Position numbers and translations under genes: made by a program. From a virus: DNA of 44,115 bases. The notes beneath the pieces are model-generated. The model was given only the letters and a program-made list of their open reading frames with translations. It was not told the origin of the DNA and ran no database searches. Positions 1 to 32,425 of this stretch are shown one piece after another. Every line of letters starts with the position of its first letter. The stretch's first letter is position 1. Location of the stretch: UHGV virus genome UHGV-0177176, one strand, 5' to 3'.

Positions 1-3000
1 TAGCAGTGCGCACTGCTATCCGCGCAGCGGATGTAGGTACGGCTGTTTATGCACAGGACCAACTGGGTCAGTCTGCGGCAGTTACTGCTCTTGTAGCAGG
101 TGTAGCTGGTCTAGACCAACTATGGGATATCCGTAGGGCAGTGCGCGCGTCTACGGTAGCTGCCTCAACTACGAGAACTGCTGAGACCGCACCTAATACT
201 GCTACGGCAACTTCCCGCACTGCTCCGGAAGAAGTAGCAACAAGTCGCAATGGGGTAGATTCCCCTGCTGGCCCGTCTAATGCGCAAGCTGATAGTGCCG
301 CGGCTGCTAAAACCACTGACGGTTTACCAGAAGGTTTAAGCTTGAACGTGCTGGATGATGTAGAGCACCACGCTTACTCTGGTGTACGTGTACCTGGTAT
401 AGAGGTAGAAGTAAATCGCGGAGATAAATTGGTTGGTGTTGTGCAGGCTTATCGTGTAGGTGACGATTTACAAGTAGCACATACCTGGGTTGACAAATCC
501 CTGCGCGGCAAGGGGGTAGGCGCGAGCATGTACAAAGCACTGGTTAAGCGCGCTACCGATGCAGGGTATGGCAACTTGTTGTCCGATAGCTCCGTAACTG
601 CGTCTGCTCAGCAGATGTGGCGCAAACTTGGTGCTACCAAAACCAAAGATTTTAAAGAATTAACGGATGGTATTGAGGGGCAGCGTTATGCGGTCTCTGC
701 GGATGAAAAGTCCCCACTCTTTACTTTGGACTTGAAACGTCCTGTGTTTGACCTAGATGCGCCCACAACTCGTACAGCAAGGGATACTAACGTTACCGGA
801 GTAGGAGAGGGAGACACTATCCTCACTAAGGTACTGGATGAACCTATCAAAGTTCGCCGAAACAACACTGCTGCTGTTAACATGAAAGCACAGGACGTAG
901 TCCGTTTCCTTAAGACCTCTGAGCACTTATCTAAAGGTCAGAAGGCTATCCTAGACACACTGAGCGACGCGGTACAGGACGTTGATTTTAAGTTGGTGGC
1001 AGGCTCTTCTAACCGTAGCCACTACAGCTTTCCACTGGTATCAAGAACTGATAGAGGTTTTGTATCTTTACGTGCCCCTAAGAAAGCTAATGGAAGTACT
1101 TGGACAACTGTAGGTGATGCCCTACGCGCCATGGACGCCGATACTAGTCGAGTAGCAGTACACGAGCTGATTCACGCTGCCACCACTAGGGCCCTTAAGC
1201 GGAACCCTGAAATTGCTAGTAAGCTGGAAGAGGTGCGCGCTGCAATAGCAGCCGATTCAACCCTCAGTGACAAGCTTAAGTACTACGCAAGCGATGTGCA
1301 CGAGATGTTAGCTGGACTAGGTGATAGTCCTGAGTGGGTGGAGTATCTCTCTAGAACTCAATCTCCCACTGGTAAGAGTATGCTCCGTCAGATTGGCGAG
1401 TACATCATGAATGCCCTTGGAGTTCGTACTAAAGGCTCTGCTTTGGAAGATGTACTCGATGCGTATGAGGATGCTGTTAAGTGGACTGCAAAAGACTACG
1501 TAGAACAAGTTCAGAGCTTCCGCAGCGAATCCTTCCAGGACCTAGCGGATACATCAGTTAAGAATGAGGCCCTGAAAGCCCAGGCTATGATAGACACAGC
1601 TAAGCGTAAATTCGCTACTATGTTCTCACTCTATGACAATATTGCAGAAGGTAGCGAGGACCTGGCACGCCTGCTGGTATCTGATGCTACTGCTGTAGGT
1701 GGGCGTAAACCGTCTGTGGTGGACTTCAAGCGTAACCTTACGTTGGAGATGGACGCCAGTGCTAGTGTAGTTGAAGATGCTATACTCGGTGCCCTTAAGG
1801 ATAAGGGTGTAGGTTTTCTGGACCGCTTCTTCCATCGTAGCAACTTCAGAGCAGCACGAGCTGACTTAGAAGACCGCTTAGGCCGTTACCTGGACTCCGC
1901 GTACAGTGCTGAGGTTAATGGACGCCCTGTGCCTCTGCCGGACTCTGACTTGGTTCCGCTAGTAGAGGCGTATCGCAACTCCGGTTGGGCCAGTAAGTGG
2001 CATGACCACATGACTGCTGCTGGTTTAGTGGATGACGGTACTCTGGTTAAATCAGATTACTACTTCCCACGCCAGTATAGCTACGATAAGATGCGCCAAG
2101 GTATTGCAAACGGTCGCTCCCTGGATAACTACAGGGATTTATTCCGCCAGGCATTACGTGACGTGTACCCGTCTATGGAACCTGAGGTTGTTCAGCGTGT
2201 CGCTAAGGAAATGGTTGACGGCATCTACAACGGACGCACCTCGGCTTCCGGCCCTATGTGGAAGCAGCTCATCAACGGTATGGGTAATGACGAAGTAGTC
2301 ATGGCTATGCGTAATGCTGGCGTAGACGAGAGCGCAATCCAGAGCTTCCTGGCGGGTAACGTCCGGGAATCCGGTGCTACTTCTCCTGCTCGGAACCTGC
2401 GTCAACGTACTCGCTTCAACATGGACAAAGAGTACATTGTGGATGGTCAGGCTATGCGTATGCAGGACCTGATGGATACTGACGTAGCCAAGGTGATGCA
2501 CGGTTATACCAACCGTATGTCTGGTCGTGTAGGTATGGCTTATGCTGGGGTATCTGACCTCAAGACGCTGGAGACGATGATTAACGAGTCCAAACACTCT
2601 CTGGCCGATTCCGGCAAGTGGGAGAAGACCGTTAACGACGCCATCGACTTTATCCTGGGCGGGGCACCGGCTGATGCCGGGCAGATGCCGGACCTACTGC
2701 GTGCCGCGGGGAATATGGCTAACGCCACCATGCTCAAGAACTCCGGACTATACCAGCTCACTGACACGGCCCTGGCTCTGAAAGAGTTTGGTATGTCCCG
2801 AGTACTGCGCGGTATGCGTGAGCAGCCTTGGTTTAAAGAGGGTGCCGTAGCTATCCGCACCCCGGATATGGCTAGCCGCCTGGACACAATCCTGCGTGGC
2901 AATATCCAGAAGGAGATGCGCTTTCGCTGGTTGAACACCTATGCAGACGACAACTTGGACCTGACCCGTCAGGCTTCCTGGTTTAACGTCACCCAGAACG

Positions 3001-3743
3001 TTGGGCAGGCCGCTCGGCATGTTAACGGTATGAGCATGGTGCACAGATTGCAGGTGAACCTGAACTCCGGGATTGTTGCCGACGAACTCACTCAGATGTT
3101 CAAAGGTGATGCAGAGGCATTTAAACGTCTGGAGCGCTTCGGGCTTACCCGTGACATTGCAGACCGTGCTATTGCTGCCAACAAGGCTAACCCCGGTGCG
3201 ATGTTCCAGCCGGACCTGCAAATGCAAGTCGAGGTGGTAGGGACACGCATGATGGACTACCTGGTGCAACAAGTACGCACCGGTGAGACCTCGCACTTCG
3301 CACAGTTCAACCCTATCGGCAAAGTAATTGTCGGCTACCAGAGCTTCGCCCTGGCCGCCACCAACAAGATTCTGCGCCGAGAGCTGAACGATGCTGGGTG
3401 GATTGGGGTTGCTCACATCATGGCGTACCAGTTCCCGCTGATGCTGCTCGCTACTATGGCTAAGCACGGTATGGATGGCAAAGAGGCCGATACTCAGAAA
3501 CTAATCTCTGAGTCGGTTATGGGTATGAGCGCCATTGGTGGTATCTCGCTTCTGCAGGATATCTTCACTGGGGACTCTCCGCGTCACTCTCTGGCGTCTA
3601 TGGGTTACGTCACCGGGCTGCTGGGTGCTGTGCAAGCCCTGGCTACTGGGAATATGGATATCCAGACCTTTACTAAGCAGGTCCCGTTAATCCAGGAATT
3701 CGCACCTACGCGAGCTATCATCAATAACTTCGGAGACGATTAA
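1..3743 (+). CDS. Internal virion / ejection protein (gp16-like), C-terminal 1246 codons. The start codon and first 173 codons are at 43596-44115, giving ~1420 aa in total
   Basis: Long ORF with no stop upstream in the window. It lies in the same frame (positions congruent to 0 mod 3) as the ORF that runs off the 3' end, and the window length 44115 is divisible by 3. It sits directly before the tail fibre and after the gp15-like gene, as in T7/phiKMV. Stop TAA at 3741-3743. Confidence 0.85.
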   Translation, partial: AVRTAIRAADVGTAVYAQDQLGQSAAVTALVAGVAGLDQLWDIRRAVRASTVAASTTRTAETAPNTATATSRTAPEEVATSRNGVDSPAGPSNAQADSAAAAKTTDGLPEGLSLNVLDDVEHHAYSGVRVPGIEVEVNRGDKLVGVVQAYRVGDDLQVAHTWVDKSLRGKGVGASMYKALVKRATDAGYGNLLSDSSVTASAQQMWRKLGATKTKDFKELTDGIEGQRYAVSADEKSPLFTLDLKRPVFDLDAPTTRTARDTNVTGVGEGDTILTKVLDEPIKVRRNNTAAVNMKAQDVVRFLKTSEHLSKGQKAILDTLSDAVQDVDFKLVAGSSNRSHYSFPLVSRTDRGFVSLRAPKKANGSTWTTVGDALRAMDADTSRVAVHELIHAATTRALKRNPEIASKLEEVRAAIAADSTLSDKLKYYASDVHEMLAGLGDSPEWVEYLSRTQSPTGKSMLRQIGEYIMNALGVRTKGSALEDVLDAYEDAVKWTAKDYVEQVQSFRSESFQDLADTSVKNEALKAQAMIDTAKRKFATMFSLYDNIAEGSEDLARLLVSDATAVGGRKPSVVDFKRNLTLEMDASASVVEDAILGALKDKGVGFLDRFFHRSNFRAARADLEDRLGRYLDSAYSAEVNGRPVPLPDSDLVPLVEAYRNSGWASKWHDHMTAAGLVDDGTLVKSDYYFPRQYSYDKMRQGIANGRSLDNYRDLFRQALRDVYPSMEPEVVQRVAKEMVDGIYNGRTSASGPMWKQLINGMGNDEVVMAMRNAGVDESAIQSFLAGNVRESGATSPARNLRQRTRFNMDKEYIVDGQAMRMQDLMDTDVAKVMHGYTNRMSGRVGMAYAGVSDLKTLETMINESKHSLADSGKWEKTVNDAIDFILGGAPADAGQMPDLLRAAGNMANATMLKNSGLYQLTDTALALKEFGMSRVLRGMREQPWFKEGAVAIRTPDMASRLDTILRGNIQKEMRFRWLNTYADDNLDLTRQASWFNVTQNVGQAARHVNGMSMVHRLQVNLNSGIVADELTQMFKGDAEAFKRLERFGLTRDIADRAIAANKANPGAMFQPDLQMQVEVVGTRMMDYLVQQVRTGETSHFAQFNPIGKVIVGYQSFALAATNKILRRELNDAGWIGVAHIMAYQFPLMLLATMAKHGMDGKEADTQKLISESVMGMSAIGGISLLQDIFTGDSPRHSLASMGYVTGLLGAVQALATGNMDIQTFTKQVPLIQEFAPTRAIINNFGDD
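792..807 (+). promoter_or_regulatory. Copy A of the 16-nt core GTTACCGGAGTAGGAG, inside the gp16-like coding sequence; candidate internal phage promoter
   Basis: Exact 16-mer shared with 12641-12656. Chance expectation for a 16-mer recurrence in 44 kb is about 1e-5. Confidence 0.3.
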
Positions 3744-3744
3744 T

Positions 3745-6060
3745 ATGGCATACAGCTGGCAAGAGTCGGTAAAGCCTGCAGGTACACAGGATATCCAGTG
3801 CGATATTGAGTATCTGGATAAGTCCTACATTCACGTTTACTTAGATGGTGCTGAGACTACTGCCTTCACTTGGACCAGCTCCACCAATATTCGTCTGAAC
3901 TCCCCACTGTCTGCAGAGACAGTGGTGCTCCTCATTCGTAAGACTGAACGAGAGTACCTCTACATTGAGTTTGCTAGTGGTGCTCCGTTCATTGAGGGTA
4001 ACGTAGATACTCAGAACACGCAATTCCTACACCTAGCCCAAGAGCTGGTTGAGGGACGTTCTATCGAGGGATTCTACGGGGACATTAACATGCACCGTTA
4101 CCGCATCACAAACCTGGGAGACCCGGTGGATGCAAGGGACGCTGCGAACAAGCAGTATGTTGATGCCGGGGATGCCCGGCTCGATGCGCGCATAGATGCA
4201 GAGGCAGCTGCTCGCAAAGCTGCTGATGACGCTTTGGATATACGCACTACCAATCTAGAGCAGACATTCTTCAACGCTAACACCAATAGCTTTCCGTGGT
4301 GGATGGTGGTGCCCTATGACACTAAAACCATAACTCCTGGAATACCTTTTACTAAGGCTAAGATTAGGCTGAATGGCGTAACTCAGACTGCAGGTTATTC
4401 TTATAGTATCAACAATGGCACAGTAACGTTCGCAGAGACTGTGCCAGCAGGTACCTTGGTAGATATGACTATTGGTGTAGATACTGATGTTGATACAGGG
4501 GCAGTTGCGAGTATCCTAGGACTGCTTAGTTCAGACAAAGGATTTAACTACATAGGCGGGGTGCCCTTTATTTACCCGGAAGCCTACGCAGATGGTACCG
4601 GGGATTGGCGCATGGCTCTACAGGCCGCCCTGGATGCTGCACATAGTAACGCTCTTAGTGGCTCAGGCCCAACTACGGTGCTCGCCACGGGGCATTACCG
4701 CATATCCTTAAACCCCAACAGTTTGGCGGTTGCTGGTGAGTTGGCCGCAGGTCGGTCCGCACTAAATATACGCTCAGGGGTAACTCTTACCGGGGGAGGG
4801 ACTATCACCCTGAATGGGGGTGTTGGTGGGTCTTCTTCCGGGGCTATATTGACCAACTGGGACGGTAGTGCGGACTCTGTCACAATCTCGAATATAACAT
4901 TCGATGGAAACGTTTCACAGAACGCCGGGACAGGCATTACGTGCGTTAACATTCTAGATTCTGCTAACGTGGTGTGCGAGGGTGTGCGCGTACTCGGCAG
5001 TCCTTCCGGAGGTTTATACTTTAGGCGGGCAGGTTCTGGTACCTATGGCTGCTCCAATCTGACGGTGCGCGGATGTGTAGTGACTAATACTGGGTACATA
5101 GGGATACAATGCGAGCGTCCGGATGGTGCCATTATATCCGACTGTATTCTCCAGAACATTGCCGACAATGCTGTGGACATCTTCGGGAATGACGGCTCAT
5201 CCACAGCCCAGGGCTATGCAAATGGCATAATAGTCAGCGGGGTAGTGGCTCGCAACGTATCCGTGGGGGTATTCTTAGAGTCCTGTGGTAACGCGGATGT
5301 AGTTGGCTGCAGATTCGAGGAGTTTTCAAACTCCGGGGTATTCTTAAACCGGATAAACACGGCCTCGTATCAAGTCAACATTAAGTCTAACACATTCATC
5401 GGGGCCTCCTTAACCTCAAGCCAGGGTGTGCGGATGAAGAATGCTGTCGGTTATTGCAATATTGAGTCAAACATGTTCAGTAACTGTATAGACTCAATTG
5501 CGACTACCGGGGGTATGATTTATACGCATATAGGCAGGAACACGCATGAGAATATAGGGAGATGCTTCCTATATGTACCAAAAACCTCAAACGGTTGTGT
5601 GTACTCTTATATGGAGCGGCAGTATTATCGGGGAGTGCAAACAAACGGCATCCCGTATAACACCACTCCGAGAGGGTACCCATCCAGCGGAAACACTAGA
5701 TTCTACAGATTTGGTGCGGAAGCCCCGTACTCTATGTACGCAGCCGCAGTGGGGGAAGATAATTTCGTAAGGGGTGGAGGGACTCTCCCATCTAACAGCG
5801 GCTGGGGGCCGGCCTACTCCCTGTACAACAACCCGGTTGCAAACGAGACTGTTATAGCATTAGGGTCCTCCAGTCTGGCTGCTGGGGAGTTTATCCTAGT
5901 GGGCGGGTATTATTATCAAATCTATAGTGTGGCAGCATCCTACTCTGTAGTGCGGAAGTGGGATGATAGCAGCCAGGCATTCGTTGCGGGAGATTACACC
6001 TCGCTACTAAACAGCGCACTAGCTTACACTATATACCGACAAGCTTGGGGGACTATATAA
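3745..6060 (+). CDS. Tail fibre / tailspike 1. The N-terminus is a T7 gp17-like particle-binding domain, followed by a right-handed parallel beta-helix (probable polysaccharide depolymerase)
   Basis: N-terminal ~150 aa resemble the T7 gp17 N-terminus (…YRITNLGDPVDARDAANKQYVD…). The downstream region carries PbH1-like repeats (NITFDGN…GITCVN…VRGCVVTNTGYIGIQC…ILQNIADNAVDIFGNDG). The ATG is 1 nt after the gp16 stop. Confidence 0.85.
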   Translation: MAYSWQESVKPAGTQDIQCDIEYLDKSYIHVYLDGAETTAFTWTSSTNIRLNSPLSAETVVLLIRKTEREYLYIEFASGAPFIEGNVDTQNTQFLHLAQELVEGRSIEGFYGDINMHRYRITNLGDPVDARDAANKQYVDAGDARLDARIDAEAAARKAADDALDIRTTNLEQTFFNANTNSFPWWMVVPYDTKTITPGIPFTKAKIRLNGVTQTAGYSYSINNGTVTFAETVPAGTLVDMTIGVDTDVDTGAVASILGLLSSDKGFNYIGGVPFIYPEAYADGTGDWRMALQAALDAAHSNALSGSGPTTVLATGHYRISLNPNSLAVAGELAAGRSALNIRSGVTLTGGGTITLNGGVGGSSSGAILTNWDGSADSVTISNITFDGNVSQNAGTGITCVNILDSANVVCEGVRVLGSPSGGLYFRRAGSGTYGCSNLTVRGCVVTNTGYIGIQCERPDGAIISDCILQNIADNAVDIFGNDGSSTAQGYANGIIVSGVVARNVSVGVFLESCGNADVVGCRFEEFSNSGVFLNRINTASYQVNIKSNTFIGASLTSSQGVRMKNAVGYCNIESNMFSNCIDSIATTGGMIYTHIGRNTHENIGRCFLYVPKTSNGCVYSYMERQYYRGVQTNGIPYNTTPRGYPSSGNTRFYRFGAEAPYSMYAAAVGEDNFVRGGGTLPSNSGWGPAYSLYNNPVANETVIALGSSSLAAGEFILVGGYYYQIYSVAASYSVVRKWDDSSQAFVAGDYTSLLNSALAYTIYRQAWGTI

Positions 6061-6362
6061 TGGCGGGGGCGGCTAAACGCAGTCGCCTCTCGGAGCTGCA
6101 CCGAATGTTCACTGAGGCCTTGATTGAAGAAATCAAGCAGTCCAAGGAAGATGAGGTGCCGCTCCCCGCCGCGGATAAATCCGTTATCGCTAAGTTCTTG
6201 AAGGACAATGACATCACTGCGGACGCAGATTCCGAGGAGATGCAGGACCTTCGTGACGAGTTCGATGACGAACTAGCGGCGCGCAGAGAGGCGCGTAAGC
6301 AAGAGATTCTAAACAAAGTTGGTGGTTCCGACTCTGAGGACTTACTAGAAGGAATTGTCTAA
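6060..6362 (+). CDS. Terminase small subunit (gp18-like, DNA maturase A), putative
   Basis: 100-aa ORF with an acidic C-terminus, lying between the tail fibre and the large terminase as in T7 (18 then 19). Start TAATG-coupled at 6060. The track ORF begins at 6045, but the internal ATG at the upstream stop is preferred. Confidence 0.6.
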   Translation: MAGAAKRSRLSELHRMFTEALIEEIKQSKEDEVPLPAADKSVIAKFLKDNDITADADSEEMQDLRDEFDDELAARREARKQEILNKVGGSDSEDLLEGIV

Positions 6363-8218
6363 TGGTATCGGTGAAGACTGCGCGAAGACTGCGCATGCTC
6401 AACCAGAAACTTACTGGTTATAGTGCGAATCCGCGCAGTATTCCCAAAGAGGAGCGCGAGGACATCGCGATGATGATGGCCGCTGCGCTAAGCGACTTCC
6501 GGGAATTTGCGTACATCGGTATGCGATTCCTGGGGTTTACACTGACGGACATGCAGGCCGACATTGCAGAGTACATGCAGAAGGGCCCTAGGAAGCGCAT
6601 GGTGGCTGCGCAGCGTGGTGAGGCTAAGTCTACACTAGCTGCGCTCTACGCTGTATGGAGGCTCATCCAGGACCAGTCCTGCCGTATCCTGATTGTATCA
6701 GGGGCGGAGAAGCAGGCGTCCGACGTAGCGAACTTAATCATTCGTATGCTGGAAACCTGGCCGCTGCTGTGCTACTTAAAGGCCGACCCTACCCGCGGGG
6801 ACCGTACTTCATTCGAAGGCTACGACGTCAACTGCGACCTGAAACCGCTGGATAAGTCTGCCAGCGTAGCGTGTGTCGGTATTACCGCGTCCCTGCAGGG
6901 GAAGCGTGCTGACCTCTTGATTCCAGATGATATTGAGACCACCAAGAACGGTTTGACACAAACCCAGCGTGAGCAGCTGCTGATGATTTCGAAAGACTTC
7001 GCGGCTATCTGTACGCACGGGGACACGCTGTACCTGGGTACACCGCAGACCAAGGACAGTATTTACAAGACCCTGCCGGGGCGTGGCTTCGAGGTCCGCG
7101 TGTGGCCCGGACGCATCCCGTCTGTTGAAATGGAAGAACGATATGGAAGTACACTTGCTCCTTATATACTGCAGCTCATTGAGCGGGGTTATAAACGCAC
7201 CGGCTTCGGCGTCGACGGGACGCTAGGGGAGAGCACCGACATTGGTCGCTACGACGAGGATGCGCTGATTGAGAAGGAACTGGACTTTGGTCCAGAGGGC
7301 TTCCAGCTGCAGTACATGCTCGACACGACCCTGTCTGACCAGATGCGTACCCGTATCAAGCTGTCGGATATGCTTGTATACTCCGGTAGTCTGGACTCTT
7401 CTCCTGAGACCTTCTCCTACATTGCGGACCGCCGGTACCTGTACCAGCATGAGCATGAAGGGATTATGGGTCAGCAGATGTACTCTCCGGCATTCTACGG
7501 GGATATGCACTTGCCGTATCAGCACAAGGTGCTGGTGGTGGACCCGGCTGGTTGTGGCGGGGATGAAGTCTCCTATGCTGCAGGCGGAGCTGCGAACTCA
7601 TACATTCACCTGTTCTCCGTTGGGGGTTTCCAAGGAGGTGTAAGCACTGAGAATATCGACAAGCTCATTGACCTGTGCGTAGAGTTGGACATCTCGGACA
7701 TGGTGGTGGAGAGCAACATGGGGCACGGCACTGTGTCCATGCTTATCCTGAACCGTTTACGAGAGCGTCGTCTTGCTGGTATCGGTGTGCGTGACATCAA
7801 CAACACCACACAGAAAGAGCGCCGTATTATCGACACAATCAGCCCAGTAACTCGACGTCACCGCCTGGTAGTGCATGAGCGTGCTATCCACGACGATATC
7901 GGAACCTGTATGTTATATTCCCGGGACCGTCGCTGGCTGTACTCTGCGTTCGCGCAGCTCGCGGGTATTACGTATGACCGCGGTAGTCTCGCTAAGGATG
8001 ACCGAGCGGACGCCGTCGCTATGATGGTGGCAGTGCTGAACGGGCACTTGGTAGAAGACGAGAAAGTAGTAGCTGAGCGTGAGTCCGAGAAGATGGCCCT
8101 GGCCTTCATTGAGAATCCGCTGGATTGGGCACAGAACAAAGTGTCTAAGGGACTTCGCGGTGTAGCGGCTCGGTTGCAGAACCGAGGCAGAGGTAAACAA
8201 CATAGAGGAAGAAGATAA
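6362..8218 (+). CDS. Terminase large subunit (gp19-like, DNA maturase B)
   Basis: 618-aa ORF with size and position typical of T7-group TerL. TAATG overlap with the upstream gene. Confidence 0.85.
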   Translation: MVSVKTARRLRMLNQKLTGYSANPRSIPKEEREDIAMMMAAALSDFREFAYIGMRFLGFTLTDMQADIAEYMQKGPRKRMVAAQRGEAKSTLAALYAVWRLIQDQSCRILIVSGAEKQASDVANLIIRMLETWPLLCYLKADPTRGDRTSFEGYDVNCDLKPLDKSASVACVGITASLQGKRADLLIPDDIETTKNGLTQTQREQLLMISKDFAAICTHGDTLYLGTPQTKDSIYKTLPGRGFEVRVWPGRIPSVEMEERYGSTLAPYILQLIERGYKRTGFGVDGTLGESTDIGRYDEDALIEKELDFGPEGFQLQYMLDTTLSDQMRTRIKLSDMLVYSGSLDSSPETFSYIADRRYLYQHEHEGIMGQQMYSPAFYGDMHLPYQHKVLVVDPAGCGGDEVSYAAGGAANSYIHLFSVGGFQGGVSTENIDKLIDLCVELDISDMVVESNMGHGTVSMLILNRLRERRLAGIGVRDINNTTQKERRIIDTISPVTRRHRLVVHERAIHDDIGTCMLYSRDRRWLYSAFAQLAGITYDRGSLAKDDRADAVAMMVAVLNGHLVEDEKVVAERESEKMALAFIENPLDWAQNKVSKGLRGVAARLQNRGRGKQHRGRR

Positions 8219-10027: not shown

Positions 10028-12037
10028 ATGGCCTTAGATAAACTCGTGAAAGTAGCACCGCCGGTGTTAGATCCGTTAGGCTTTACAACTCCGGAACAGT
10101 ATGGGTATGTACCCGGGGCTAGCTCAGCAGCAAACGCTACAAGTATTATGAGTGCATTGGCTGCTGCCAAAGCTCGGAAGTGTCCGTGTAAGTTTTCTGA
10201 GGGTGTGTATTCTAGCGATACCATCTCTCTGGATTATGCGGTGGCTGTGGAGGTAGCGGCAGGTGCCTACTTAGACTTTACCTTGATAATGCAAGGGCAG
10301 CACTTCAGTGCCTCTGCTACTGTAAACACGTCCTTAACGTGGGCAGATGTCCCTGTAGGCAGCACTAGCTTGGCTGGTAACTTCTCTGCATTCTCTGCAG
10401 GAGATGTTGTGGCGGTGAGTTTGAATGACTCTATCGGCGGCAGCGCCTCTCAGGGTAATGAAATTGGTACGGATATTATGATCGTAGCCAGTGCTGATAG
10501 CTCTAAGATTACGTTTACATCGGGTACTCGATACGCCTACACCAATCCCGTAGTACGGAAGCTGACAGCGGCTGTAAAACTGTCGGGGGTAGTGGAGGCA
10601 GGTACTTACAGTATTGCAGGGGATTACACCGCTAAGTTTGCTGCGGGGGACATCTTGAGGGTAGAGAATGTCGATGGGACGGATTCTGTTGAGGCACATA
10701 CCTCATACTTAGAGTTTGTTAAAGTGGTTAGTGTAAGTACCTCGGCCTTAGTGTTAGACCAAGCTCTATACTACACTCACGGGAGTCCGTGGTTAGTGAA
10801 GACTGGATGGGTGGAGGGTGCACATGTATCCGGTGGTGGTAGAATCAAACGTCTTGAGTTGAGGCAAGCAGTACACCCAGAGGTCCAGGACATTGACGTA
10901 GATCGGCTTATCTACGGCTTCACCTACGGCTTAGTTAGCTCCGGCATCTACGCTCGTGGTGTGAAAGAGCCTAGTACTATCAATCACACCTACTGCTTTG
11001 GGCGGATGCAAGTTCATAATATAAAGGCAGGTGGTAGTGTTGCAGTTACAGATAACGCCGCAATCAAGTTCATGTCCTGCCCGGGCGCTCAGATTAGTGG
11101 ACTTACAGTTACGAATACTGCGGCTACTGGTAGCCAGGGTGATTATGCCGTGTTCGTGGATGCTTTCTATACCCCGTACTATTCCTGGAACCGGGATATG
11201 CAGTTGCAGGGTGTAACTTGTGAGTCACCCCGTAGTCCTGTTACTCGAGGTGTGTGGTTCTATGGTGCTGCAGATAGTATGTTTAAGGACATAGTGGGTG
11301 CGCAGGTGTTCTTGCAAGGCTGCTACCGCACTATCCTGCGTGACGTGGTTACACCGCGCTGGCAGATGGAGTTACGGGACCTAGTGCACTGCACCGTTAA
11401 GGACTGCCACGTTAAGAACTTCACCGTTCTTGGCTGTGATAGTACCGAGTTTAGTATCCGCACAGATGGTCTAGGTACAGGTGCAAGCCTAAACATTGCA
11501 GGACGCTTCGGGGGCGGTACGCGCAACCCTGTTACTGGGGAGACGTATAACTTGGGAACAGGCAACCGCATCGGCATTCAAAGCGATAGTACTAGCAGTA
11601 GCGCTATCACCCTTAGTATCGCACAGCAGGACTCCTTCATTATTCTGAGTGGGTGCTGTGACCGTAGCACTGTTAATGCAAGCATCAAACTAGGTAACAA
11701 TGTAACGAATCCATTCATGGAGCCTAATAGCCTTCGCGGCGCAATTGATGCAGGTTCCGGCTGGGCTGGTCCAGTGCAGAAGGGTGGTATTGAATTCCGA
11801 GGTGATTACCGGGATGGTTATGTTCGGCTCAACGGTTATTACGTGTGGATGTCCAGCACTGGGCAGCTTCGAGCTAGCAGTACTAAACCCTCTTCAGACT
11901 CGCCGTCTGGATTCATCCCGATCGGGCCTAATACTGCTTCGGCGGTAAGTAATAGCTCTGGTACGGATGCAGCTAGTGTAGCTGTGAATGCGCTTATGGC
12001 GAGTCTGCGTGCTGCAGGTATCTTGAAGACCTCATAA
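10028..12037 (+). CDS. Tailspike 2: beta-helix receptor-binding protein / probable depolymerase without a gp17-like N-terminal adaptor
   Basis: 669-aa ORF with repetitive beta-strand-rich Gly/Ser/Thr/Val composition and PbH1-like segments (…ISGLTVTNTAATGSQGDYAVFVDA…). It is the last gene before the terminal non-coding region, as in KP34-like phages. SD GAGGG. Confidence 0.75.
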   Translation: MALDKLVKVAPPVLDPLGFTTPEQYGYVPGASSAANATSIMSALAAAKARKCPCKFSEGVYSSDTISLDYAVAVEVAAGAYLDFTLIMQGQHFSASATVNTSLTWADVPVGSTSLAGNFSAFSAGDVVAVSLNDSIGGSASQGNEIGTDIMIVASADSSKITFTSGTRYAYTNPVVRKLTAAVKLSGVVEAGTYSIAGDYTAKFAAGDILRVENVDGTDSVEAHTSYLEFVKVVSVSTSALVLDQALYYTHGSPWLVKTGWVEGAHVSGGGRIKRLELRQAVHPEVQDIDVDRLIYGFTYGLVSSGIYARGVKEPSTINHTYCFGRMQVHNIKAGGSVAVTDNAAIKFMSCPGAQISGLTVTNTAATGSQGDYAVFVDAFYTPYYSWNRDMQLQGVTCESPRSPVTRGVWFYGAADSMFKDIVGAQVFLQGCYRTILRDVVTPRWQMELRDLVHCTVKDCHVKNFTVLGCDSTEFSIRTDGLGTGASLNIAGRFGGGTRNPVTGETYNLGTGNRIGIQSDSTSSSAITLSIAQQDSFIILSGCCDRSTVNASIKLGNNVTNPFMEPNSLRGAIDAGSGWAGPVQKGGIEFRGDYRDGYVRLNGYYVWMSSTGQLRASSTKPSSDSPSGFIPIGPNTASAVSNSSGTDAASVAVNALMASLRAAGILKTS

Positions 12038-12187
12038 AGCATCTGGCAATCACAGGGGTATCCTTGGAGCGCTCTTGGGGTATCTCTAGGGTATCTCTGT
12101 AGGAGTTCATGGGCGCACGTCTATATCTGGACCTAAAATTTATTAGACTTACGCGAGGGCCTCCCTCACCCTCAGCGCGCCCAATTG

Positions 12188-12233
12188 CCCCCATAGGGGG
12201 GTGCCTAGGGAGAATTTAGGGGGGGGGCACCCC
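12188..12233. repeat. Compound palindrome: CCCCC-ATA-GGGGGG, plus the inverted repeat GGGGTGCC…GGCACCCC flanking a G9 homopolymer
   Basis: Read directly: cccccatagggggg at 12188-12201, GGGGTGCC at 12198-12205, GGCACCCC at 12226-12233, G9 at 12219-12227. Confidence 0.8.
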
Positions 12234-12600
12234 TAGTGGGCTGCTTGGGCCTGCTAGTGCGCACCAGCGGGCCTCAGTGGCTCTCTGCGCTGCGCTAGGG
12301 CTATCGCTAGTGCTACCCTACGGCTATCCCTGTGCGTTCACTGTGGGGCCGCTAGGGCGCTCTATGGGGCGCTGGAGGTGCGCTCTGCCTTGCTTATTTT
12401 GTGCGCCTCAGTGTGGCACCTAGTGGGGCCATAGTGGACCACCTAGTGCGCCGGCAGAGCGTCACAGTGCTATCACTAGTGCGCACTCGGCTATCCATTG
12501 GCTATCCTTAGCGCTTTACATTGTGCTTATTATATGCTACGCTGCGCGCTCCCCACTAGGGCGCACATCCACTATCCGCCACTATCCCTAGAGCTATCCC
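12233..12600. repeat. Array of dispersed short direct repeats (CTAGTG[C/G] at least 6 times; GCTATCC at least 6 times; CTAGGGCGC 2 times)
   Basis: CTAGTG occurs at about 12233, 12254, 12308, 12420, 12443, 12474 (and 12856). CTATCC occurs at about 12300, 12324, 12491, 12502, 12572, 12582, 12594. This is analogous to the short-repeat arrays in T7 terminal repeats. Confidence 0.6.
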
Positions 12601-12633
12601 TTCTATATTCTCTTTCATTCGGAAGCTAGTATG

Positions 12634-12656
12634 AAATGAAGTTACCGGAGTAGGAG
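12634..12656 (+). promoter_or_regulatory. Copy B of the conserved motif AAATGAAGTTACCGGAGTAGGA(G); candidate phage-RNAP promoter in an OL-like position
   Basis: Exact 22-mer shared with 32404-32425. The 16-nt core GTTACCGGAGTAGGAG is shared with 792-807. Confidence 0.4.
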
Positions 12657-12810
12657 GGTTTTAGGGAACTACATACACACTACACACTACTACTCACTAG
12701 TATCCCCTAGTAATGCCCTGTATTACGACCGTAGGGAGTAAGCATTACCTACATATTAACCGCATTGCTCCGTGTCCTTTCACTTCGTACGGACACTACG
12801 CACTGCCTTA

Positions 12811-12860
12811 TGTAGTATTGGTTAGTATTGGTTAGCATTGGTTAGTAGTGGCTAGTGCCA
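12811..12860. repeat. Tandem 10-bp repeat (GTTAGTATTG, about 5 units, degenerate at the 3' end)
   Basis: tgtagtattg|gttagtattg|gttagcattg|gttagtagtg|gctagtgcca. A 10-bp phase suggests an iteron-like or protein-binding array. Confidence 0.75.
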
Positions 12861-12889
12861 TCCATAGTGTGGTTATAAGTCCTTGCCCT

Positions 12890-12960
12890 GCTTACTCTTT
12901 TTGCTCTTAAGGATAAATATTTGCAAAAACTTTAAAATAATACTTGCTTCTTTTGGTCTG
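12890..12960. other. AT-rich island in an otherwise ~53% GC genome
   Basis: ctttttgctcttaaggataaatatttgcaaaaactttaaaataatacttgcttctttt. It lies adjacent to the 10-bp array and upstream of the sigma70-like promoters. Confidence 0.6.
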
Positions 12961-13075
12961 TTGGCGCTATAGTTCAATCACCGGGAGGCACTGAGGCGCT
13001 AACCGGGGTCGAGCCGGGAGGCTCTGCCGGATTAAAGCTAGATGGTGTGAAGGGTTAGATACTCAATAAAAAGAG

Positions 13076-13104
13076 TTGACACCGCGAAGAACATAAGCTA
13101 GATT
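13076..13104 (+). promoter_or_regulatory. Sigma70-like early promoter P1 (TTGACA, 17 nt spacer, TAGATT)
   Basis: Perfect -35 at 13076-13081, 17-nt spacer, -10 TAGATT at 13099-13104, A-rich sequence upstream. It lies ~410 nt before the first early gene, as with T7 A1-A3. Confidence 0.5.
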
Positions 13105-13218
13105 AAATCCAAGCATTACGGCAGGATAGTTGAAGACAGGCCGTTAACTAGGACACTTCCACGTGGCAAGCCACCACAGGGCGCTGTACCGTAACCAGAT
13201 GGCTTAAAAGTAAAACGC

Positions 13219-13247
13219 TTGACAAGTTCGGATTCACCTAGTAACTT
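13219..13247 (+). promoter_or_regulatory. Sigma70-like early promoter P2 (TTGACA, 17 nt spacer, TAACTT), weaker -10
   Basis: Perfect -35 at 13219-13224. The -10 matches at only 3/6 positions. Confidence 0.3.
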
Positions 13248-13520
13248 AGATGGCGAACGATGCAGTAAGCCGATTTGCGGGGAGGCCCAGTACCTTGACT
13301 GGTACGATAACGACCAATCCTAGATAATCAGTGTAGTAAAGAAGTAACATCAAGAGCTGAGATGACAAACGGCTGGGGCGCTGAGGCGCTGCCCCTTAAA
13401 AGAATAGCGCCGAACCCTGAGCCACAGGGTCCACGGTTGTGCAGTGGGTAACAAGGTTAAGAATTAGCGTCCTACTAAATTCTGCTAGGGCGTTAATCAT
13501 TAACTTTGATGAGGTACACA

Positions 13521-13736
13521 ATGAAATATCGTGATAAGTTAGCGCAACAATTTGCCGGGCTGGAGAAGTTATCAGGTGCGGAATTGAGAAAGCGTCGAGA
13601 TGCGTTGAATCGCGCCGGTTATATGCGGATGAAACAATCCGCTACATTCAGCACGAATGTACGCGGTAAAACCAAAACAAAGGGCAGTAGCAAGGCTCCG
13701 CAAGGTTGGTACACTGCCGGGCAGTTCGGACGCTAA
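13521..13736 (+). CDS. Early protein (71 aa, basic)
   Basis: SD GAGGT lies 5 nt upstream of the ATG at 13521 (the track ORF starts at a TTG at 13506). First gene of the early region. Confidence 0.6.
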   Translation: MKYRDKLAQQFAGLEKLSGAELRKRRDALNRAGYMRMKQSATFSTNVRGKTKTKGSSKAPQGWYTAGQFGR

Positions 13737-19274: not shown

Positions 19275-20062
19275 TGGACCAGCCCTGGCTTAGAGCGTGC
19301 AAGCGCCTGGCCGTGGGGCAGAGGGCACGCTTTCGGTGCTGCGGCAAGGACGCCGCCGGAGTGCTCTACAATAACCCGGATGCCTGGGAATACTATTGCC
19401 ACCGCTGCAAACAGGTAGGCAAAGAGCGCAAGCAGTACCAGCGCATACAGTTACAGGAAGAGCCGAGGGTGCAGCCCTCTGCACCTGCAGATGCAATTTG
19501 CATTAGCCAAGCGCCTGCGGAAACGCAGAGTTTTATTTACGGATTCCTTGCTTCAAAAGGAATCATGCCTGAAATGGTGGAGGATGCAGAGTGGAGCAAC
19601 GAGAAACAGCGGATACTATTCTGTGTAGGGGGTGCTGTACTGGGCCGTGCTGTTCATGCCCGGCAGCAACCGAAGTGGGTAATGTACGGGCAGCCAATAC
19701 CTTTCGCTGCCGTGGGACCTGCCGTAGCACGGGATGTAGCTGCGGCCGCGCCTCTAAAGGTCGTGCTCACAGAGGACTTACTCTCAGCCCGGAAGATACA
19801 GCACGCAGTTACGAGCTACAGTGCGTTGAACGTGCAGGCTATAGCTATGCTGGGTACACGCTTGCCCACGCCGCTGCGAGCCTGGCTGATTCAGAATCGC
19901 CCGGAAGTGATTCTGATGCTGGACAATGACCCGGCAGGGCATGCCGGGGTAGCAGCAGCGCGCAAGGCACTGCGCCCGTTCATGCAGTGCCGAGAACACT
20001 ACTTCGCTGCGGACCCGAAGGACGCAGAAATCAAAGAGATACTGGAGGCGCTTAATGCTTAA
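19274..20062 (+). CDS. DNA primase (zinc-ribbon + TOPRIM)
   Basis: CCGK…CHRC zinc ribbon. TOPRIM motifs (…VLTEDLLSARK…, …LMLDNDPAGH…). ATG at 19274 overlaps the upstream TGA. Confidence 0.8.
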   Translation: MDQPWLRACKRLAVGQRARFRCCGKDAAGVLYNNPDAWEYYCHRCKQVGKERKQYQRIQLQEEPRVQPSAPADAICISQAPAETQSFIYGFLASKGIMPEMVEDAEWSNEKQRILFCVGGAVLGRAVHARQQPKWVMYGQPIPFAAVGPAVARDVAAAAPLKVVLTEDLLSARKIQHAVTSYSALNVQAIAMLGTRLPTPLRAWLIQNRPEVILMLDNDPAGHAGVAAARKALRPFMQCREHYFAADPKDAEIKEILEALNA

Positions 20063-29933: not shown

Positions 29934-32402
29934 ATGATTAGCGCCCTGAATACGGTTGTAGTACCAGAGGAAGCACTGGTGGAACGCCAGTTGGAGCTTG
30001 AAGAGACCTACAAGATTCGCGGCATTGAACGTGCTCGCAAATTGATTACCGATGCTCTACAAAACGGCGGGATTATGAACCTGCCTATGACTCAGCGCAT
30101 GCTAACCTCTGCGTACGACGTGGCCTCTGCAGCCATTGAGGAAATGCGTAATGTCAAAGCCCCGGGTATCGGTGGAAAGTACCGCCGATTCCTACGCTTA
30201 GTCCCCTTGGATGTCCTAACTACTCTGAGCCTGTGCACAATGTTTGAGGCGTTCAGTGTTGCCCCTGGTGAGTCCGCCAGTCGCCGCCAGACAGCTCAGG
30301 CAGTGATGTCCGCTCTGGGTAGGAATGTACAGTCAGAGCTGCTGGCCCTACAACTACGTAATGTTGCCCCAGCGTATATGGACCGGGTATATGAATACCT
30401 CACTGAGCGCCGTACTAAGTCGCCTACGCACATTCTGCGTACGCTCCGCGCCAGTGCTGAGAACGTGCACTATGGGCATGAGCCTTGGACCAACGCTCAG
30501 AATATTTCTGTGGGACGTCTGCTGTGTTCCGCAGTGTTTGAGACAGGGCTGTTCCAGTGGAAGACTGGTAGCGGGAACTTGAGTATGCTCTATCCCGCAG
30601 ATAATGTTATGGAAGCATTTCAGCAGTTAGTGGAGTCTGCTGACACTGTAACTATGAAGCCTCCGATGCTGGTACCGCCGGTGCAACATACTACACTGTG
30701 GGATGGTGGATACCTCACCCCAATCGATAACCGTGGGACGTACCACAACTCACACATTGACCACGCCAGACTGCGTGAAGTAGCGGAAGCATTTAAGTCT
30801 GCGGACGGTATCAAGAAGGCGCTTAATAAGGCGCAGGAAACTCCTTATCGCATTAATAAGCGCATCCTAGAATTGGTTCAGGAGGCTCGTGCAAACGGCA
30901 TAGGTATCGGTATGCCTCGCTCAGTACCAGAGCCGAAACCGGAGTGGTACTTAGATGGTGTACCGAAAGAGAATTACACCGAAGAGGAGCTGGACCGCTT
31001 CGGAGAGTGGAAGACGCGTATGTCCTTATGGTACAGCGCCGACCGTAAACGTGTGTCGCAACTACGTAGCCTATTGACCACGCTAGAGATGGCAGAGGAA
31101 TTCAAAGATGAGAAAGCCCTGTACTTCCCAACCTGCGTGGATTGGCGGTACCGGCTGTACTTCAAGTCCTCACTGCACCCCCAAGGTTCTGATTTGCAGA
31201 AGGCACTTCTTGAATTCGGACGAGGTAAACCTCTGGGAGAGAGAGGGTTATTCTGGCTTAAAGTGCACGTCGCTACCTGCTTTGGTTATGACAAAACCTT
31301 ATTCGAAGACCGTGCAGCTTGGGTTGATGCAAACTTTGCAGAGATTGAGCAGCTCGCGGATTCTCCTTTTGATTGCCCTGCTTTTGCCTCCGCAGACAGC
31401 CCCTGGTGCTTCCTAGCAGCCGCTATCGACCTGGTTAATGCTGTACGTTCTGGATGCCCAGAAGAGTATATTAGCCGAATCCCAGTTGCTATGGATGCTA
31501 CAAACTCAGGTGGGCAGCACCTCTCAGCGCTCCTGAGAGACCCTGTGGGCGGACGCTTGACGAACCTGTACTGGGAAGGTAACGACAAGAAAGCGGACCT
31601 GTACATGGACGTGAAGCGCCGTACGGACGAGAAGGTGATACTGGACCTGGACAAAGAGGATTTCGTTATCCAGAGCACGTACTGGAGAGAGAACGAGATT
31701 ACTCGCAGCATGACCAAGCGCCCAAGCATGACCTACTTCTACAGCGCCACGGTACGTAGCTGCAGCGACTACATCTTTGCAGGGGCCTGTGAAGAGGGGT
31801 ATGAAGGAACAGACACGCACAGTCTCTGGAACTTATCCTGCTACCTTGCACCTAGAATGCGTAGCGCTATTGAGGAAGCTAACCCGGCAGCAGCAGCAGC
31901 CATGGGGTATCTGCAGAACCTCGCTAGGCGTGTACCTGCTAGTCAGCACCTGCAGTGGAAGACACCGCTTGGCGGGCTTGTGATGAACCGATACACACAG
32001 CGCGAAGAAGTGCGTGTACGTATTGACTGTATGAACCTCACTATCATGCGTGTGCATAATCGGGATTTCAAGACCTGCAACAAGCGCAAGGCAGCCTCTG
32101 GAATTGCCCCGAACTTTGTGCATAGCCTGGATAGCACGCACTTGATGATGGTGCTCTGCGCGGCGGAGGGGCTGGATATTGTGCCGATTCACGACTCCTT
32201 GGCTACTCACGCAGCTGATGTTGATGCCCTGCACCGACACATCCGGGAGCAGTTTGTGAAGCTGTATGAAGAGCACGATCTTCTGGGGGATATTACTAGG
32301 GCTGCTGCTGCAGCGGGGGCAGACTTAACGGACCTGGACATGCCTGCGGTGGGTACATTGGATATCCGGCAAGTGCTGGAATCACCTTTCTTTTTCTGCT
32401 GA
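29934..32402 (+). CDS. DNA-directed RNA polymerase, single-subunit T7-like
   Basis: Motif A AMDATNSGGQHLSALLRD (T7: AFDGSCSGIQHFSAMLRD). Motif B RSMTKRPSMTYFYSAT. Motif C PIHDSLATH. SD AAGGAGG. The late position immediately upstream of the structural genes is phiKMV-like. Confidence 0.92.
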   Translation: MISALNTVVVPEEALVERQLELEETYKIRGIERARKLITDALQNGGIMNLPMTQRMLTSAYDVASAAIEEMRNVKAPGIGGKYRRFLRLVPLDVLTTLSLCTMFEAFSVAPGESASRRQTAQAVMSALGRNVQSELLALQLRNVAPAYMDRVYEYLTERRTKSPTHILRTLRASAENVHYGHEPWTNAQNISVGRLLCSAVFETGLFQWKTGSGNLSMLYPADNVMEAFQQLVESADTVTMKPPMLVPPVQHTTLWDGGYLTPIDNRGTYHNSHIDHARLREVAEAFKSADGIKKALNKAQETPYRINKRILELVQEARANGIGIGMPRSVPEPKPEWYLDGVPKENYTEEELDRFGEWKTRMSLWYSADRKRVSQLRSLLTTLEMAEEFKDEKALYFPTCVDWRYRLYFKSSLHPQGSDLQKALLEFGRGKPLGERGLFWLKVHVATCFGYDKTLFEDRAAWVDANFAEIEQLADSPFDCPAFASADSPWCFLAAAIDLVNAVRSGCPEEYISRIPVAMDATNSGGQHLSALLRDPVGGRLTNLYWEGNDKKADLYMDVKRRTDEKVILDLDKEDFVIQSTYWRENEITRSMTKRPSMTYFYSATVRSCSDYIFAGACEEGYEGTDTHSLWNLSCYLAPRMRSAIEEANPAAAAAMGYLQNLARRVPASQHLQWKTPLGGLVMNRYTQREEVRVRIDCMNLTIMRVHNRDFKTCNKRKAASGIAPNFVHSLDSTHLMMVLCAAEGLDIVPIHDSLATHAADVDALHRHIREQFVKLYEEHDLLGDITRAAAAAGADLTDLDMPAVGTLDIRQVLESPFFFC

Positions 32403-32403
32403 T

Positions 32404-32425
32404 AAATGAAGTTACCGGAGTAGGA
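32404..32425 (+). promoter_or_regulatory. Copy C of the 22-mer AAATGAAGTTACCGGAGTAGGA; candidate late phage promoter. Its 3' end supplies the SD for the ORF at 32426
   Basis: Exact 22/22 match to 12634-12655. It lies immediately after the RNAP stop (32400-32402). Confidence 0.45.

Follow-up and report, generated by a model that had tools for sequence, protein, structure and literature searches.

Where the physical ends of the virion DNA lie is the question raised by a gene-free block in UHGV virus genome UHGV-0177176, of which the whole stretch of 44,115 nucleotides was analysed (the window). A reading made from the letters alone (the sequence-only reading) had placed the genome terminus at 12038-12660, directly behind the last late gene, on the grounds of motifs resembling the left end of phage T7, a compound palindrome, a run of nine G and arrays of short repeats in a 1.47-kb block free of open reading frames (ORFs). 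The window is a complete Drulisvirus genome (KP34-like; Autographiviridae, Slopekvirinae) in circularly permuted form, and comparison with related phages makes it very probable that the block is a T7-type concatemer junction in which the terminal repeat, 222 bp at about 12164-12385, has collapsed to a single copy. The observations of the sequence-only reading were partly confirmed; its interpretation is supported, with boundaries now predicted to the base pair. The element in question is:

12164 (±1)..12385 (possibly 12387), plus strand: predicted direct terminal repeat, 222 bp, one copy, from alignment to the experimental ends of phage fHe-Kpn01

The termini of fHe-Kpn01 have been fixed by PhageTerm analysis, restriction mapping, ligation and Sanger sequencing, which showed blunt ends and a repeat of 222 bp (PMC7291057). 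In its record the two ends are exact duplicates over 222 bp, running from …GGGCCTC|CCTCACCCTGAACG to …GGGCGCTC|CGTCTTACCTATTTTG, and by alignment these limits map to window positions 12164 and 12385, which likewise enclose 222 bp. Exact end duplications (prefix identical to suffix) with the same two aligned boundaries were found in five relatives: KP34 (216 bp), KpV41 (214-216), AttikonH5 (215), Pokalde001 (247) and SAA231 (268). The differences in length among these five are due to internal insertions and deletions. The right ends of the KP34 and KpV41 records align to 12385, and at least 10 further records start or stop at positions 1-3 or 222-224 of the predicted repeat. When the 224 nt from 12164 to 12387 were used as a query, 177 records covered at least 80% of it, with an identity of about 78-88%. 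Homology to Drulisvirus repeats thus extends over the entire element, and its boundaries match experimental ends. The predicted left end at 12164 starts with CCTCACCC, the right end at 12385 reads …GTGCGCTC|TGCCTTGC, and the physical genome length would be about 44,337 bp. The sequence-only reading had put the termini in this block and had suggested an alignment with termini of the KP34 and phiKMV groups; the experimental ends of fHe-Kpn01 and the deposited ends of its relatives bear out the location, the right end of KP34 fits 12385, and phiKMV shows the run of C described below at nt 26. The repeat sits in non-coding sequence, behind the last late gene and ahead of the early promoters, in a genome whose long ORFs are on the plus strand in every case, and the G+C fraction is 0.62-0.65 over 12100-12400 as against about 0.50-0.54 for the coding sequences on either side.

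Some ~250 Drulisvirus phages of Klebsiella, Escherichia and Shigella match both the non-coding block and a core segment of the window, at ~80-93% identity. For the 4.8-kb core segment, the best whole-length match in the phage collection is ~91% identical and partial matches reach 92.8%; because the whole-length matches are all at or below ~91%, the genome is no deposited phage but represents a new species-level relative. The last 170 and the first 170 bases of the window align without interruption within the internal virion protein gene of relatives, and an overlap between the two window ends was looked for and is absent; therefore, the genome is complete, and the assembled circle was cut open at an arbitrary point. 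The contig junction (44115|1) falls inside the internal virion protein gene, listed as an ORF at 6..3743. Because the contig was opened inside this gene, the 1245-residue ORF is truncated at its start and continues from the window end. The expectation that the terminal repeat had collapsed to one copy in a circular contig held up, as the window ends are contiguous in relatives, lack an overlap, and the palindrome of the repeat occurs once. The single copy is best explained by the assembler having closed the linear chromosome into a circle through the terminal repeat.

The packaging and transcription genes are of the expected kind:

6045..6362, plus strand: small terminase subunit (T7 gp18-like), Pfam PF11123 DNA_Packaging_2, E 2e-19
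6362..8218, plus strand: large terminase subunit, T7 type, Pfam PF22530 Terminase-T7 RNaseH-like, E 1.3e-30
29934-32402, plus strand: single-subunit RNA polymerase, PF00940 and PF14700

Both subunits of a T7-type terminase together with a phage single-subunit RNA polymerase make up the gene set that goes with an Autographiviridae-type terminal repeat. The features of cohesive-end (cos) or headful (pac) packaging were not found, the terminase being of T7 type and the ends of relatives being blunt, fixed and formed by an exact repeat.

Conservation was assessed in an alignment of eight reconstructed junctions, each composed of the right-unique sequence, the repeat and the left-unique sequence. 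The elements distinguished by this conservation track are as follows:

12038..12112, plus strand: variable right-unique spacer, poorly conserved, with GGGTATCTCT exact at 12078 and 12089 and with 2 mismatches at 12056
12113..12163, plus strand: conserved block outside the left cut (GCGCACGTCTATATCTGGACCTAAAATTTATTAGACTTACGCGAGGGCCTC), mostly invariant, the exceptions being two letters of the 9-mer GGACCTAAA, its second G and its T
12284..12345, plus strand: near-invariant repeat core (…GCTAGGGCTATCGCTAGTGCTACCCTACGGCTATCCCTGTGCGTTCACT)
12386..12401, plus strand: conserved TGCCTTGCTTATTTTG immediately past the right cut, near-invariant, with TGCCTT at 12386-12391

Near-invariant stretches span both the left cut (12113-12203, including CTCCCTCACCCT and TGCCCCCATAGGGGGTG) and the right cut (12378-12401), and a further one lies at about 12464-12570. 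Variable sequence is found in the tailspike-adjacent spacer with its GGGTATCTCT repeats and in the right flank of the G-run. Thus, both predicted cuts fall in the best-conserved DNA of the block, with …GGGCCTC leading up to the left cut and TGCCTTGCTTATTTTG following the right one. Three GGGTATCTCT-like repeats at 12056-12100 had been pointed out from the letters, and they exist in the two exact copies and one imperfect copy listed above; as a conserved terminal array they were rejected, as they are not conserved among the eight junctions.

Within the repeat, the most prominent element is a palindrome, which is followed by a second inverted repeat:

12188-12201, unstranded: C5-ATA-G6 palindrome CCCCCATAGGGGGG (CCCCCATAGGGGG(G)), sole copy in the window, starting at nt 25 of the repeat
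12198-12205 / 12226-12233, unstranded: second inverted repeat GGGGTGCC / GGCACCCC, from sequence inspection

Over 44 kb of coding strand, a run of at least five C followed by [AG]T occurs only once, at 12188, and this C5 lies at offset 25 from 12164, in accordance with the empirical rule for left ends derived below. The C5-ATA-G6 palindrome is invariant in relatives. The T7 left end reads TCTCACAGTGTACGGACCTAAAGTTCCCCCATAGGGGGTACC, as the sequence-only reading had it, and the 13-mer common to T7 and the palindrome is far beyond chance. Judged by its sequence and spacing, the palindrome is truly homologous in position to the T7 element at nt 26-38. The other motif that had been likened to T7, the 9-mer GGACCTAAA, did not stand: its sole exact copy in the window, at 12129-12137, is outside the repeat by 27-35 nt; in relatives the site has GAACCCAAA, GAAACCAAA or GGACCTGAA, with variation of the second G and the T; and one 9-mer in common between two regions of a few hundred bp is about what chance would give. 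The match of GGACCTAAA to T7 is probably due to chance.

The second inverted repeat had been described as surrounding the run of nine G. It is present, but the G9 run (12219-12227) forms part of its right arm and does not lie between the arms. It was rejected as a conserved structure, the right arm not being retained in KP34, KpV41, Pokalde001 and fHe-Kpn01. Single-strand folding of the compound palindrome yielded -12.3 kcal/mol with z = +0.79, no better than shuffled sequences, and a hairpin-based explanation is therefore without energetic support. An Rfam scan of 11900-13700 gave only a chance match (NEAT1_2, E 0.74) and no known RNA element.

The C-run proved to be shared by left ends across the family. 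In 12 of 12 Autographiviridae left ends, which come from at least nine genera, a run of at least four C begins at a distance of 25-29 nt from the terminus; AT follows it in most cases, and it is often palindromic. Eight of the twelve have no other such run within their first 500 nt, and the chance of such a C-run per phage is 0.01-0.05. The records of SP6, K1-5, Syn5 and RSB1 carry no repeat annotation and are assumed here to begin at the physical end. Start of the run and its sequence are:

T3: start 26, C8-ATAG
SP6: start 29, C4-ATAGGG
K1-5: start 25, C4-ATAGGG
phiKMV: start 26, C5-GTAGG
LKA1: start 26, C5-ATG
LIMElight: start 25, C4-ATC-G4
Syn5: start 25, C6
RSB1: start 26, C5-ATG
JG068: start 28, C5 (out of sample)
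AS11: start 26, C6 (out of sample, end with 38% GC)

The JG068 and AS11 ends were retrieved only once the rule had been formulated, and both fit; those of JG068 have been mapped by run-off sequencing (PMC3765740). At the right end, TGCCTY stands immediately behind the repeat in Drulisvirus, LKA1, LIMElight and AS11 and comes 4 nt later in phiKMV, whereas T7, T3 and JG068 carry (A)TCTGT after the repeat instead. These patterns suggest that the sequence context of the right cut is conserved as well. On these comparisons, the palindrome corresponds in position to the T7 element, and the end signatures of the family are present at the predicted ends. The motif strings of the end signature returned nothing relevant in the literature searched, which excluded the classical T7/T3 packaging papers. 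That the C-run, together with TGCCTY in phiKMV-like lineages, constitutes a so far undescribed family-wide Autographiviridae end code, possibly made of recognition or measuring elements of the terminase, is a tentative and rather doubtful proposal.

The short-repeat arrays and the remainder of the block were examined in the same way. The sequence-only reading had counted at least six copies each of CTAGTG(C/G) and GCTATCC. This is right for CTAGTG(C/G), with six plus-strand copies in 12038-12660 (12233, 12254, 12307, 12420, 12443 and 12476) and one on the minus strand (12553). GCTATCC has four exact copies (12323, 12490, 12501 and 12593) and reaches six only with the cores GCTATC or CTATCC. 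Over the whole window the counts of the short motifs are near expectation (23 CTAGTGS versus 18.7 expected), and their clustering is evident in that 7 of 23 plus-strand CTAGTG and 6 of 20 CTATCC fall within about 1.4% of it, with a chance of ~1e-8 each by a binomial estimate on windows chosen post hoc. The CTAGTG/GCTATC array straddles the right boundary, with 3 + 2 copies inside the repeat and 4 + 4 beyond. Half of the array lies outside the repeat. A function of the short-repeat arrays in concatemer processing is an assumption. The description of the block as free of ORFs was accurate, as no coding-strand ORF of 60 or more residues is found from 12038 to 13505, the largest having 48. The features to the right of the repeat are:

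12402..12620, plus strand: left-unique continuation of the CTAGTG/GCTATC(C) array, including the conserved block at about 12464-12570
12813..12856, plus strand: tandem array of 4.4 copies of the 10-bp repeat TAGTATTGGT, with related TAKTRKTGG copies in most relatives
13076..13104, plus strand: early host (sigma-70) promoter TTGACACCGCGAAGAACATAAGCTAGATT, identical to the KP34-like host promoter (PMC4411677 Table 3)
13219..13247, plus strand: second early host promoter TTGACAAGTTCGGATTCACCTAGTAACTT (PMC4411677 Table 3)
13521..13736, plus strand: first early gene, 71 residues, phrog_6352, E 8e-45; the first annotated coding sequence in relatives

The pattern TTGACA-N17-TANNNT has two sites in the whole window, at 13076 and 13219. 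The order of repeat, non-coding leader, host promoters and early genes is that of the T7 left end. The period of TAGTATTGGT equals one helical turn, and the array lies ~220 nt upstream of the first host promoter, with the copies of relatives at the equivalent place. In addition, AGCCTATAGCATCCTATAGGGGGTGCTATGTGAA at 13741-13774 matches the 'putative phage promoter' of KP34-like phages (PMC4411677 Table 3), a motif that could alternatively be a nick site according to the same study (PMC4411677).

Several points weigh against ends at 12164 and 12385. For this phage the ends derive entirely from homology, at about 80-85% identity; the boundaries in the records shift by ±1 nt on the left and by +2 nt on the right (SAA231); the roles of the motifs in terminase binding are putative; and the palindromes have no exceptional single-strand stability. 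In addition, the repeat annotated in NKA196 is another one, corresponding to window positions 12079-12252, and those in KPPK108.2 and F19 are shorter. The termini could accordingly lie in the block at other boundaries, either NKA196-like from ~12079 to 12252 (~170 bp) or KPPK108.2-like from 12164 to ~12342, where the records of NKA196 and KPPK108.2 do contain exact end duplications of 167 and 170 bp. Such boundaries are unlikely, being minority annotations with no experiment described, whereas the experimental fHe-Kpn01 ends and most other records converge on 12164 and 12385. Those of NKA196 moreover fall in poorly conserved sequence, its right repeat beginning on the last base of the tailspike coding sequence and its left repeat ending ~20 nt past the G-run. 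Two other records that seem discordant break off at the G-run or the palindrome. The 'left direct repeat' of SU552A begins directly after the G-run and finishes at the canonical GTGCGCTC|TGCCTTGC. KP-Rio/2015 is annotated in two pieces, one from the canonical CCCTCACCC to a point within the palindrome and the other from right after the G-run to the canonical right boundary. Because their repeats break at these places they look like sequencing stops, and the coincidence of the G-run and palindrome with truncated annotations suggests sequencing artefacts. The canonical boundaries are in agreement on the right in SU552A and on both sides in KP-Rio/2015, so that both records support these boundaries and do not contradict them; true disagreement is limited to NKA196 at both ends and to KPPK108.2 and F19 at the right end. 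The G-run within the repeat varies between 4 and 14 nt among relatives (G9 here), and at 12219-12227 it looks like a trouble spot of sequencing or assembly that corrupts repeat annotations.

A different objection concerns the likeness to T7, which might be coincidental, with the palindrome a lineage-specific protein-binding site or terminator-like hairpin unrelated to the ends. Palindromes of this size can occur by chance in GC-rich non-coding DNA, T3, LKA1, Syn5 and AS11 retain the C-run without a palindrome, and the role of the palindrome in end formation is putative. This explanation is nevertheless very unlikely in view of the exact 13-mer match to T7 at an equal distance from an experimentally defined end (25 versus 26 nt), and of a C-run that recurs at +25 to +29 in all twelve ends and, in eight, is without a second run of at least four C over the first 500 nt, each at a low chance per phage. 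Still further from the evidence would be a phage without fixed ends, packaged headful and circularly permuted, in which the block is a regulatory or replication leader whose repeats bind transcription or replication factors. The early host promoters lie in the block and the clustered short repeats reach beyond the predicted repeat, as such a leader would have it, but the terminase is of the T7 type, terminal repeats are exact and non-permuted in many relatives, with ends shown by experiment to be blunt and fixed in one, and the block has the family-wide left-end signature at the correct spacing. This possibility is regarded as negligible, and the collapsed terminal repeat at 12164-12385 remains the preferred reading.

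Motifs resembling the nick sites of related phages were also found. The nick consensus of the phiKMV group is 5'-CGACxxxxxCCTA/CTCCGG-3' on the non-coding strand (PMC3517423), and one copy of its core lies near the repeat:

12645..12654, minus strand: CCTACTCCGG, the nick consensus core of the phiKMV group, found in 7 of 10 relatives at a comparable position

Exact copies of CCTACTCCGG number three (796-805, 12645-12654 and 32415-32424), all on the minus (non-coding) strand, against an expectation of ~0.08, and two of them have 20 nt in common (CCTACTCCGGTAACTTCATT). The full consensus CGAC-N5-CCTACTCCGG was not found at any of the three sites, where the upstream CGAC is missing. The exact 10-nt core and the non-coding strand are thus as in the phiKMV-group nick sites, whereas CGAC is lacking here, and the sites are candidates from sequence alone. 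The stretch around position 19483 (19424-19542) is 99% identical to the site of the third PhageTerm peak of fHe-Kpn01, a putative nick at nt 7873 in the primase gene; this nick-like site was checked for CCTACTCCGG and gave no match. The stretch is palindromic (GGTGCAG…CTGCACC, TGCAAATTTGCA).

On the other side of the repeat lies the last late gene:

10028..12037, plus strand: tail fiber or tailspike ('tailspike 2'), PDB 7vul 'non-contractile tail fiber protein', E 8e-168

Searches of Pfam and PHROGs gave no match for this gene, identities within the phage collection do not exceed 46%, and its product is probably a receptor-binding protein of new specificity. A lysozyme is also encoded in the window (Pfam).

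For T7, one repeat between the genomes of a concatemer, site-specific cuts by the terminase and formation of the second repeat copy by DNA synthesis have been described (PMC10438801). By analogy, we infer the cuts, blunt ends, repeat duplication and motif roles in the present phage. Replication would give head-to-tail concatemers with one repeat copy between genomes, as in the T7 paradigm. A terminase cut at 12163|12164 would create the left end 5'-CCTCACCC, and one at 12385|12386 the right end …GTGCGCTC-3'. Duplication of the repeat via DNA synthesis would leave a copy on both ends of the virion DNA, with blunt ends as in fHe-Kpn01. The likely recognition elements are the conserved blocks at the cuts, namely C5-ATA-G6, 25 nt inside the left end, and TGCCTTGCTTATTTTG past the right end; the C-run, ~2.5 helical turns away from the left cut, may act as a fixed-distance element. 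The remaining gene-free sequence would be a non-coding leader that is the first to enter the cell and ends in the host promoters at 13076 and 13219, from which early transcription would start.

KP34-like terminal repeats are well documented, so the finding is an ordinary one and in itself adds little; it does permit correct linearisation of the genome to about 44,337 bp, starting at 12164 and closing with 12164-12385 repeated, in place of an opening within a virion gene. The sole part that might be new is the family-wide end signature. If its elements are what the terminase recognises and measures by, and if they are so far undescribed, physical ends could be predicted from collapsed assemblies, and a defined DNA substrate would be at hand for studies of cutting by T7-type terminases. 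Many Autographiviridae records are without repeats or inconsistently annotated, and the signature could be used to check deposited ends. The C-run and right-end motif could also be a start for mapping what the T7-type terminase recognises.

Compared with the repeats of the Drulisvirus phages fHe-Kpn01, KP34 and KpV41, the predicted repeat is at the same place, past the last tailspike gene and ahead of the early host promoters, and has the same first (CCTCACCC) and last (GTGCGCTC) bases, palindrome, core and flanking blocks; that of fHe-Kpn01 also has the same length as predicted here, 222 bp. The differences are an identity of ~80-88%, own GGGTATCTCT repeats in the spacer before the left cut, a palindrome with six G here and five elsewhere, and a G9 run in place of 4-14 nt. 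From T7, with its 160-bp repeat flanked by CCTAAAG arrays, the junction differs in having no overall sequence similarity besides the palindrome, in array units (CTAGTG and GCTATC) that lie partly inside the repeat, in the position of GGACCTAAA outside the repeat, which is inside in T7, and in TGCCTT instead of ATCTGT after the right cut. In common with T7 are the T7-type terminase, a short exact repeat between late and early regions, a left end reading YCTCAC, and CCCCCATAGGGGG at nt 26 in T7 and at nt 25 here. In both phages short-repeat arrays adjoin the repeat, and a non-coding leader and then host promoters follow it.

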